64,000 nt of DNA from the sequence record PV714129.1; one strand, 5' to 3'. Numbering within the stretch: position 1 is the stretch's first letter; every line of letters starts with the position of its first letter. This DNA is from Escherichia phage Mizar. Shown here piece by piece: positions 61,803 through 62,200 of this stretch. The position numbers and the translations under genes are program-made. The notes under the pieces are model-generated. The model ran no database searches, was not told where the DNA came from, and saw nothing but the letters and a program-made list of their open reading frames with translations.

Positions 61803-61830
61803 TTTGATTTCTCCTCTAGTTGACAGATCT

Positions 61831-61859
61831 ATAGTAACACAACTAGAGGAGAAGTAAAC
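61831..61859 (-). promoter_or_regulatory. T4-type early promoter with SD-sequestering inverted repeat upstream of regB (approx.)
   Basis: minus-sense GTTTAC, 17 nt, TACTAT; arms ctcctctagttg / caactagaggag flank the -10. Confidence 0.55.
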
Positions 61860-62200
61860 TACTCTTTGAAAGGAATTAACTTTTTAACTGCTTTAGATAC
61901 TTCGTCACGAACCTGGTGGAAGTTCTTGAGCTGTTCAAGGCGTTGTTCGTAATACGCAATCTCATCTTCTTCAAGACAATCGTCAGCGTCTTCTTTCAGA
62001 TATGCCTTGTACTCATTAAAGAGGGCCCATAGGCGGTTCTCAAAGTCATCAAGGCTTTGAATTTTCTTGTGCTTCGGAACAAGGCCAAAAGGATTGCTTT
62101 CAGTTATGCGTCGAGATGCTTCATAATGAGTTCCAAAGCCTGATAGGATTTGAGCCATTAGTATTTTTCCTCTGGTTGAAATACCGCACGACAAGCCCAC
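61859..62200 (-). CDS. hypothetical protein at the vs position
   Basis: 113 aa track ORF adjacent to regB; T4 vs (valyl-tRNA synthetase modifier) sits here, but the sequence was not recognised. Confidence 0.4.

Follow-up and report, generated by a model that had tools for sequence, protein, structure and literature searches.

Early promoters embedded in predicted Shine-Dalgarno-masking hairpins in Escherichia phage Mizar: a candidate early-gene variant of T4 promoter-in-hairpin control on PeSL-type cassettes

Introduction

Early promoters of Escherichia phage Mizar are embedded in hairpins predicted to mask the Shine-Dalgarno sequence (SD) of the gene located downstream, an observation made in a preliminary description of this DNA and confirmed here. 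These elements are most aptly regarded as an early-promoter variant of the promoter-in-hairpin translational control of phage T4, carried on cassettes of the PeSL type, a correspondence which that description did not contain. The mechanism it put forward, by which the translation of each gene would depend on the use of its own promoter, is the best-supported explanation of the hairpins and is probably right, on in silico and comparative evidence.

Hairpins that sequester a ribosome-binding site and hold an internal promoter have been described for T4 e, soc, 49, I-TevI/II/III and segB, together with mobE of phage Aeh1 (PMC3014915, section 29), and the known cases have been summarized as “all late genes” (Edgell et al., 2010; PMC2988022, section 12); the analogy with T4 late genes drawn in the preliminary description is thus accurate. 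PeSL cassettes consist of an intergenic early promoter with a stem-loop within it, followed by an SD and an ATG, and their stems have been read as terminators or attenuators, without mention of translation (Arbiol, 2010; Comeau, 2014; PMC2839356, PMC4122927). Among the genes concerned here, regB encodes an endoribonuclease that cuts GGAG when it is single-stranded and followed by an A-rich stretch, structure being inhibitory (PMC1702504, PMC3014915). RegB cleaves its own SD and is made under tight control, from a promoter that falls silent after 2-3 min (PMC3014915), while proteomics places both RegB and ModB among the early proteins (PMC9697503). Full-text searches returned no case of SD sequestration at a T4 early promoter; some older T4 papers lay outside their reach, so the T4 regB or modB hairpin may have been already described.

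Results

Anatomy of the cassettes

The window, i.e., the whole stretch of 64,000 nt analyzed (PV714129.1), matches genomes of Mosigvirus (RB69-like Tevenvirinae) at 98-100% identity, among them those of Shigella phage SHSML-52-1 and Mosigvirus mar005p1, and its gene names were taken from annotated relatives. The minus strand carries all the genes concerned, and the arms are therefore read on it; the features are collected in Table 1.

Table 1. Coordinates of the promoter-hairpin cassettes and associated features in the window.
Feature	Position	Strand	Details
vs.3 homologue TAG stop codon	61859..61861	-	its G opens the -35 hexamer
-35 hexamer GTTTAC, T4-type early promoter of regB	61854..61859	-	fits the PST/T4 PeSL consensus TTTACW-N17-TAYWAT (PMC4122927)
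regB 5' arm TTCTCCTCTAGTTG	61840..61853	-	anti-SD, in the promoter spacer
regB -10 hexamer TACTAT	61831..61836	-	TGt before it; in the hairpin loop
regB 3' arm CAACTAGAGGAGAA	61809..61822	-	contains SD GAGGAG (61816-61811)
regB coding sequence	61344..61802	-	152 aa, endoribonuclease; ATG at 61802
motB.2 cassette	7384..7434	-	-35 7434-7429; 5' arm 7428-7416; -10 TATTAT 7411-7406; SD-bearing 3' arm 7396-7384
motB.2 homologue coding sequence	6855..7379	-	ATG at 7379
mobD.2a cassette, degenerate arms	58178..58229	-	-35 58229-58224; anti-SD core 58223-58216; -10 TATAGT 58206-58201; SD core 58185-58178
mobD.2a homologue coding sequence	57994..58173	-	ATG at 58173
Intrinsic-terminator-like hairpin, GCCCC-N12-GGGGC then TTTTT	58241..58267	-	from sequence and fold; between the rI homologue and the mobD.2a promoter
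modB cassette, variant design	13395..13458	-	18-bp hairpin 13440-13395
55.6 cassette, weak version	43726..43783	-	spacer TCCTCgATAG pairs with CTATaGAGGA

The regB cassette is the clearest case, and reads on the minus strand gagTAGTTTAC-TTCTCCTCTAGTTG-tgt-TACTAT-agatctgt-CAACTAGAGGAGAA-atcaaa-ATG. Its arms form a perfect inverted repeat of 14 bp around a 17-nt loop that holds the -10, with the GAGGAG in the 3' arm, just as had been claimed for this site; the 3' tail of the stem is AAAUCAAAAUG. The embedded promoter is of the early type (GTTTAC-N17-TACTAT), and was identified from its consensus match and its homology to the early promoter documented for T4 regB (PMC3014915). Transcription is predicted to start near 61824. 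[quoted passage not shown]

That description proposed three sites alike. The motB.2 site stands with regB, its arms pairing perfectly over 13 bp with an additional inner 5-bp helix (GAUAU/AUAUC) that partly contains the -10 TATTAT. The third, at mobD.2a, has a 5' half nearly base-identical to that of regB, but its arms pair only over an 8-bp core (TTCTCCTC/GAGGAGAA), 30 nt apart, or at 8/12 positions of the arms as originally written. The arm pairing named for this site was rejected: in the RNAfold prediction the SD and AUG pair instead with the -10/+1 region, and this fold is no better than those of shuffled sequences (z = -1.3).

Two further promoters carry other versions. At modB, the 5' arm includes the -10 itself (TATGAT, 13435-13430) and the 3' arm includes both the SD (GGAGG) and the AUG (13402), the -10 pairing with the start-codon region AUCAUG and the SD in a hairpin of -22.9 kcal/mol (z = -4.4); T4 modB has the same arrangement (GATAGC...GCTATCATG). 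The version at 55.6 is weak.

Chance expectation and predicted folding

The first 14 nt of the cassette, GTTTACTTCTCCTC, occur in exactly three copies in the window, where 0.34 matches with ≤2 mismatches would be expected, and none of 100 shuffles reached three. The window has five perfect inverted repeats of ≥11 bp (loops ≤40 nt) vs. 0.77 in Markov shuffles, the regB and motB.2 sites being two of the five. The z-scores of these two hairpins are -3.98 and -5.98, respectively. An Rfam scan of the whole window gave no match at gathering score.

Folding of both transcript forms leaves the SD open in promoter-initiated RNA and paired in read-through RNA (2.9-4.6 vs. 12-19.5 kcal/mol to open), as the preliminary description had anticipated. 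Leaders that start at the promoter have almost no structure (0 to -2.5 kcal/mol), while the read-through hairpins reach -22.2 (regB) and -23.9 kcal/mol (motB.2) with the SD wholly paired, and still form when 150 nt of upstream context are added. The predicted ensemble cost of opening the stretch from SD to AUG at regB is 2.9 kcal/mol in the own-promoter form vs. 16.6 in the read-through form. The equivalent pairs of values are 4.6 vs. 19.5 for motB.2, 4.3 vs. 12.0 for mobD.2a, 3.0 vs. 16.8 for modB and 0.5 vs. 6.3 for 55.6. At the other 13 early promoters of the window, any such difference is small or absent (≤4.5 kcal/mol). A difference above 7 kcal/mol was found in 4/19 promoter-linked genes vs. 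1/49 genes lacking a promoter.

Among the genes lacking a promoter, gene 55 alone has a large read-through difference (10.5 kcal/mol). The structure upstream of it (41396-41470, minus strand; ATG 41394) is nested, with an inner hairpin AUAGGUCU/AGACCUAU enclosed by an outer helix AGUAUCUC/GAGGUACU in which the SD is buried. It also contains a TATAAT and a TGCTTTA resembling a MotA box, and is possibly a middle-promoter version of the same device.

Other promoters of the window have hairpins spanning the -10 that leave the SD out. Perfect 12-bp palindromes at minus-strand promoters (42615-42648 and 57740-57771) flank or overlap the -10 and end before the SD; the promoters at 53618, 19904 and 19163 are listed with stems of this palindromic or of the GGTCTAT/ATAGACC kind, likewise flanking or overlapping the -10 and excluding the SD. 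Both kinds of stem are of the classical PeSL type and, given that they stop short of the SD, promoter hairpins may have a more general, SD-independent role. A perfect 11-bp inverted repeat with a 29-nt loop (GGCACTATTAC/GTAATAGTGCC) is also present at 2459-2509.

The same scan was applied to the early region of T4 (L082 plus L083). Opening-cost differences there amount to 11.3 (regB), 10.9 (modB), 10.0 (nrdC.8) and 7.8 kcal/mol (e.8), followed by 7.1 (denV), 6.0 (55.6) and 4.2 kcal/mol (motB.2) (weaker). The denV cassette of T4 (L083, ATG 65355), with arms TCTCCTGTAG/CTACAGGAGA, is near-identical to the regB cassette of two other lineages (L029, L054), a likeness that suggests that cassettes can move between genes.

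Conservation of the pairing

Comparison of 59 regB loci from IMG/VR and metagenomes, with about 40 unique upstream sequences, revealed arms that co-vary across 18 lineages, T4 included. Eleven of the 20 distinct lineage types, T4 again among them, have an anti-SD arm in the spacer whose distal part is lineage-specific, yet complementary to the SD arm (TAGTTG/CAACTA, TTGACTG/CAGTTAA, TTTATG/CATAAA, GTAAG/CTTAC, TTTTAGT/ACTAAAA, ATTTG/CAAAT and TCTG/CAGA). The complete arms are CTCCTCTAGTTG/CAACTAGAGGAG in Mosigvirus and CCTCTTGACTG/CAGTTAAGAGG in T4, the latter with one G·U pair; further lineages have TCTCCTCTTTATG/CATAAAGAGGAGA, TCTCCTGTAAG/CTTACAGGAGA, TCTCCTTTTAGT/ACTAAAAGGAGA, TCCTCATTTG/CAAATGAGGA and TCCTCTCTG/CAGAGAGGA. 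Cognate arms form helices of 9.6 bp vs. 6.2 bp for non-cognate ones (permutation p about 5e-5). A MAFFT alignment of the leaders was discarded for counting pairs, as it set the 3' arms out of register. In an ungapped alignment anchored on the TCC/GGA core alone, which includes four lineages lacking the anti-SD:SD helix and tests the distal pairs fairly, but is partly fitted, 76.5% of the cells are paired vs. 61.5±2.0 in shuffles, and double-sided compensatory cells number 41 vs. 15.7±3.1 (0/500 shuffles reaching this count; slid controls 5-11). Two lineage types (L031, L047) have a hairpin spanning the -10 but short of the SD, plus a 5-bp anti-SD core alone.

At motB.2, a search of IMG/VR with the single protein gave close relatives alone, and the loci were found with a two-sequence profile. 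They display five differing hairpin designs, with the SD and/or AUG within the 3' arm in 5/5 and the 5' arm at or upstream of the start site in all of them. The anti-SD occupies the spacer in three designs (Mosigvirus, TGGTT/AACCA; T4-type, UCCUCGGU.UAGUUGUGGU/ACCAUAGCUACUGAGGA; a third type, TTCTCCTCATG/CATGAGGAGAA), and in the remaining two the -10 or +1 region pairs with SD and AUG. Such constant burial across changing designs points to the ribosome-binding site as what selection keeps buried. At two independent loci, compensatory change among lineages keeps the arms paired.

Terminators and read-through

A canonical intrinsic terminator directly precedes the promoter in the two most distant hairpin-less regB lineages (L035/L076/L078 and L077), and in 0/15 of the hairpin-bearing ones. 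The mobD.2a site, in turn, combines decayed arms with the upstream terminator-like hairpin of Table 1, which the terminator scan missed, its loop exceeding 8 nt. Neither hairpin nor terminator was seen in the regB lineages L027/L063 and L069/L070. The pattern of either a terminator or a hairpin fits with the insulation of the gene from upstream expression, be it transcriptional or translational. The terminator scan found no convincing candidate between the upstream promoter-like sites at 63916 and 8939 and the regB and motB.2 cassettes, respectively, so that read-through into both cassettes is plausible.

Discussion

Relationship to known systems

As in the late-promoter hairpins of T4, the SD and/or AUG would be buried in a helix in transcripts initiated upstream, and the internal promoter's own transcripts, which in T4 are translated, lack the 5' strand (PMC3014915, PMC2988022). 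The differences lie in the embedded promoter, which here is of the sigma-70 early type and not the late TATAAATA, in the genes, which are immediate-early (regB, modB, motB.2), and in the predicted outcome, i.e., a switch-off of translation after the early period instead of a delay until the late one. Since the embedded promoter is early, and RegB and ModB are early proteins, the cassettes are a variant of the e/soc/49/I-TevI type rather than a member of it.

The cassettes also share three traits with PeSL. The early promoter is intergenic and sigma-70-like, and its 3' end carries an SD and a start codon; a stem-loop occupies the region between the -35 and -10 or overlaps these hexamers (with the 5' arm in the spacer and the -10 in the loop in our case); and the element, repeated in the genome, coincides with gene-replacement boundaries among close relatives. 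Published PeSL stems, however, are regarded as distinct from the SD, those of the PST/T4 set being drawn upstream of the promoter, whereas here the 3' arm is the SD and pairing co-varies with it. Compared to an intrinsic terminator placed before a promoter, the predicted result would be no different, as the downstream gene would be expressed from its own promoter alone; the difference is that control would be exerted on translation, the transcript running on and genes further downstream still being expressible.

Proposed mechanism

The anti-SD built into the core of the early promoter, whether in the -35/-10 spacer (regB, motB.2) or in the -10 itself (modB), would probably act as a translational insulator against read-through. 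A polymerase coming from an upstream promoter would transcribe both arms, and the resulting RNA would fold (about -22 kcal/mol), burying the downstream SD and, in some designs, the AUG; binding of the 30S subunit should thereby be blocked. The same hairpin should put the GGAG out of reach of RegB, whose substrate must be single-stranded. Transcripts from the embedded promoter would start between the arms with an open leader of about 22 nt, and we infer them to be both translatable and RegB-cleavable, the read-through form being neither. RegB, MotB.2 and ModB would then be made solely while their own early promoters fire, and not from later read-through RNA. An upstream terminator would yield an equal outcome. 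In addition, the cassettes are repeats where related phages have apparently recombined.

Alternative readings

Taken as published, PeSL stem-loops would be mainly terminators or attenuators and recombination hotspots, and the overlap with the SD would be incidental. We consider this unlikely as the main function, even though every PeSL feature is present (PMC2839356, PMC4122927) and the GTTTACTTCTCCTC repeat occurs three times. Where the regB genes of Mosigviruses are 97-99% identical, the 5' edge of the cassette marks exactly the point at which identity drops from 97% to about 55%, and database matches (H20-H23) likewise begin at the regB cassette. Around 61860, three near-identical phages (L002, L003, L020) are wholly different from the window upstream of the regB cassette, with the break at the -35. 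In one lineage (L045), the 5' arm has two mismatches to a 3' arm unchanged with respect to its relative L044. The breaks near 61860 and between L044 and L045 look like recombination within the cassette, and L045 and the mobD.2a site look like chimeric cassettes. Recombination alone, however, would not keep complementarity via compensatory change. A PeSL stem of phage RB49 cut downstream lacZ about as much as the rrnB T1 terminator (PMC2839356), but that assay cannot tell termination from translational effects. Reading the hairpins as canonical intrinsic terminators was rejected, given their 17-nt loop, a tail (AAAUCAAAAUG) lacking a U-tract and their absence from the terminator scans, though they may attenuate transcription. 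Besides, the SD or AUG is always the buried part across lineages and designs, which an attenuator would not need.

A translational-coupling gate, in which ribosomes finishing the upstream gene would open the read-through hairpin, making translation of the downstream gene conditional on that of the upstream one, appears improbable. In most lineages, 5-8 nt separate the upstream stop codon from the 5' arm, and short spacing between stop and promoter is general in this compact genome. The ribosome covers about 9 nt past the A-site codon. From this footprint, a ribosome terminating on vs.3 could reach some 4 nt into the arm at regB, opening about 4 of the 14 bp, but about 10 bp would stay closed, GAGG included; with the 8-nt spacing of T4, such a ribosome would touch only about 1 nt of the arm.

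Comparably doubtful is that RNA stability is the target, with the hairpin shielding the GGAG between the genes of a polycistronic RNA against RegB, or serving as a protective 3' or 5' stem after processing, and translational control being secondary. Structure does inhibit RegB, and 16 structured T4 GGAG sites resist it; the SDs resemble the RegB consensus GGAGAAUAAAA (PMC1702504), which is matched at 10/11 positions in motB.2 (GGAGAAUAAUA), 8/11 in regB (GGAGAAAUCAA) and 7/11 in mobD.2a (GGAGAACGUUA). Nonetheless, the designs that bury the AUG through the -10 (modB and the lineages L087 and L088) point to translation initiation as the target, and not to the GGAG. The SD would be occluded in any case, which makes shielding an added consequence rather than an exclusive alternative.

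Lastly, an action of the DNA itself, as a cruciform or single-strand hairpin affecting promoter activity, replication or recombination, is highly improbable: the arms are perfect DNA palindromes and sequencing polymerases cannot pass PeSL stems in single-stranded template (PMC2839356), but nothing at this level accounts for the SD or AUG being, without exception, in the 3' arm. On the other strand, the G·U pairs that the T4 regB and motB.2 stems also hold would be A·C mismatches; as one lineage has the opposite pattern, the argument is a weak one, the strand test comprising few informative pairs (few G·U vs. one C·A).

Significance

If promoter-gated insulation is correct, it would explain how nucleases and ADP-ribosyltransferases remain strictly immediate-early despite belonging to long units that are read later, through three superimposed layers: shut-off of the early promoter, RegB cutting of the open leader and silent read-through RNA. 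It would also provide an alternative function for some PeSL stem-loops hitherto taken as terminators, and extend a textbook T4 mechanism beyond late genes. For phage engineering, a gene moved with its own cassette would stay insulated, while the swap of half a cassette would break insulation, as has apparently happened at the mobD.2a site and in L045.

As a more tentative generalization, which we regard as possible rather than established, T-even phages may make wide use of “promoter-gated translation”, with an anti-SD or anti-AUG placed in the spacer or -10 of early promoters. It would serve immediate-early and often toxic genes (regB, modB, motB.2, denV, nrdC.8 and others), would be interchangeable with an upstream terminator over evolution, and would set which RNA isoform is exposed to RegB; some PeSL stem-loops would, in that case, be translational insulators.
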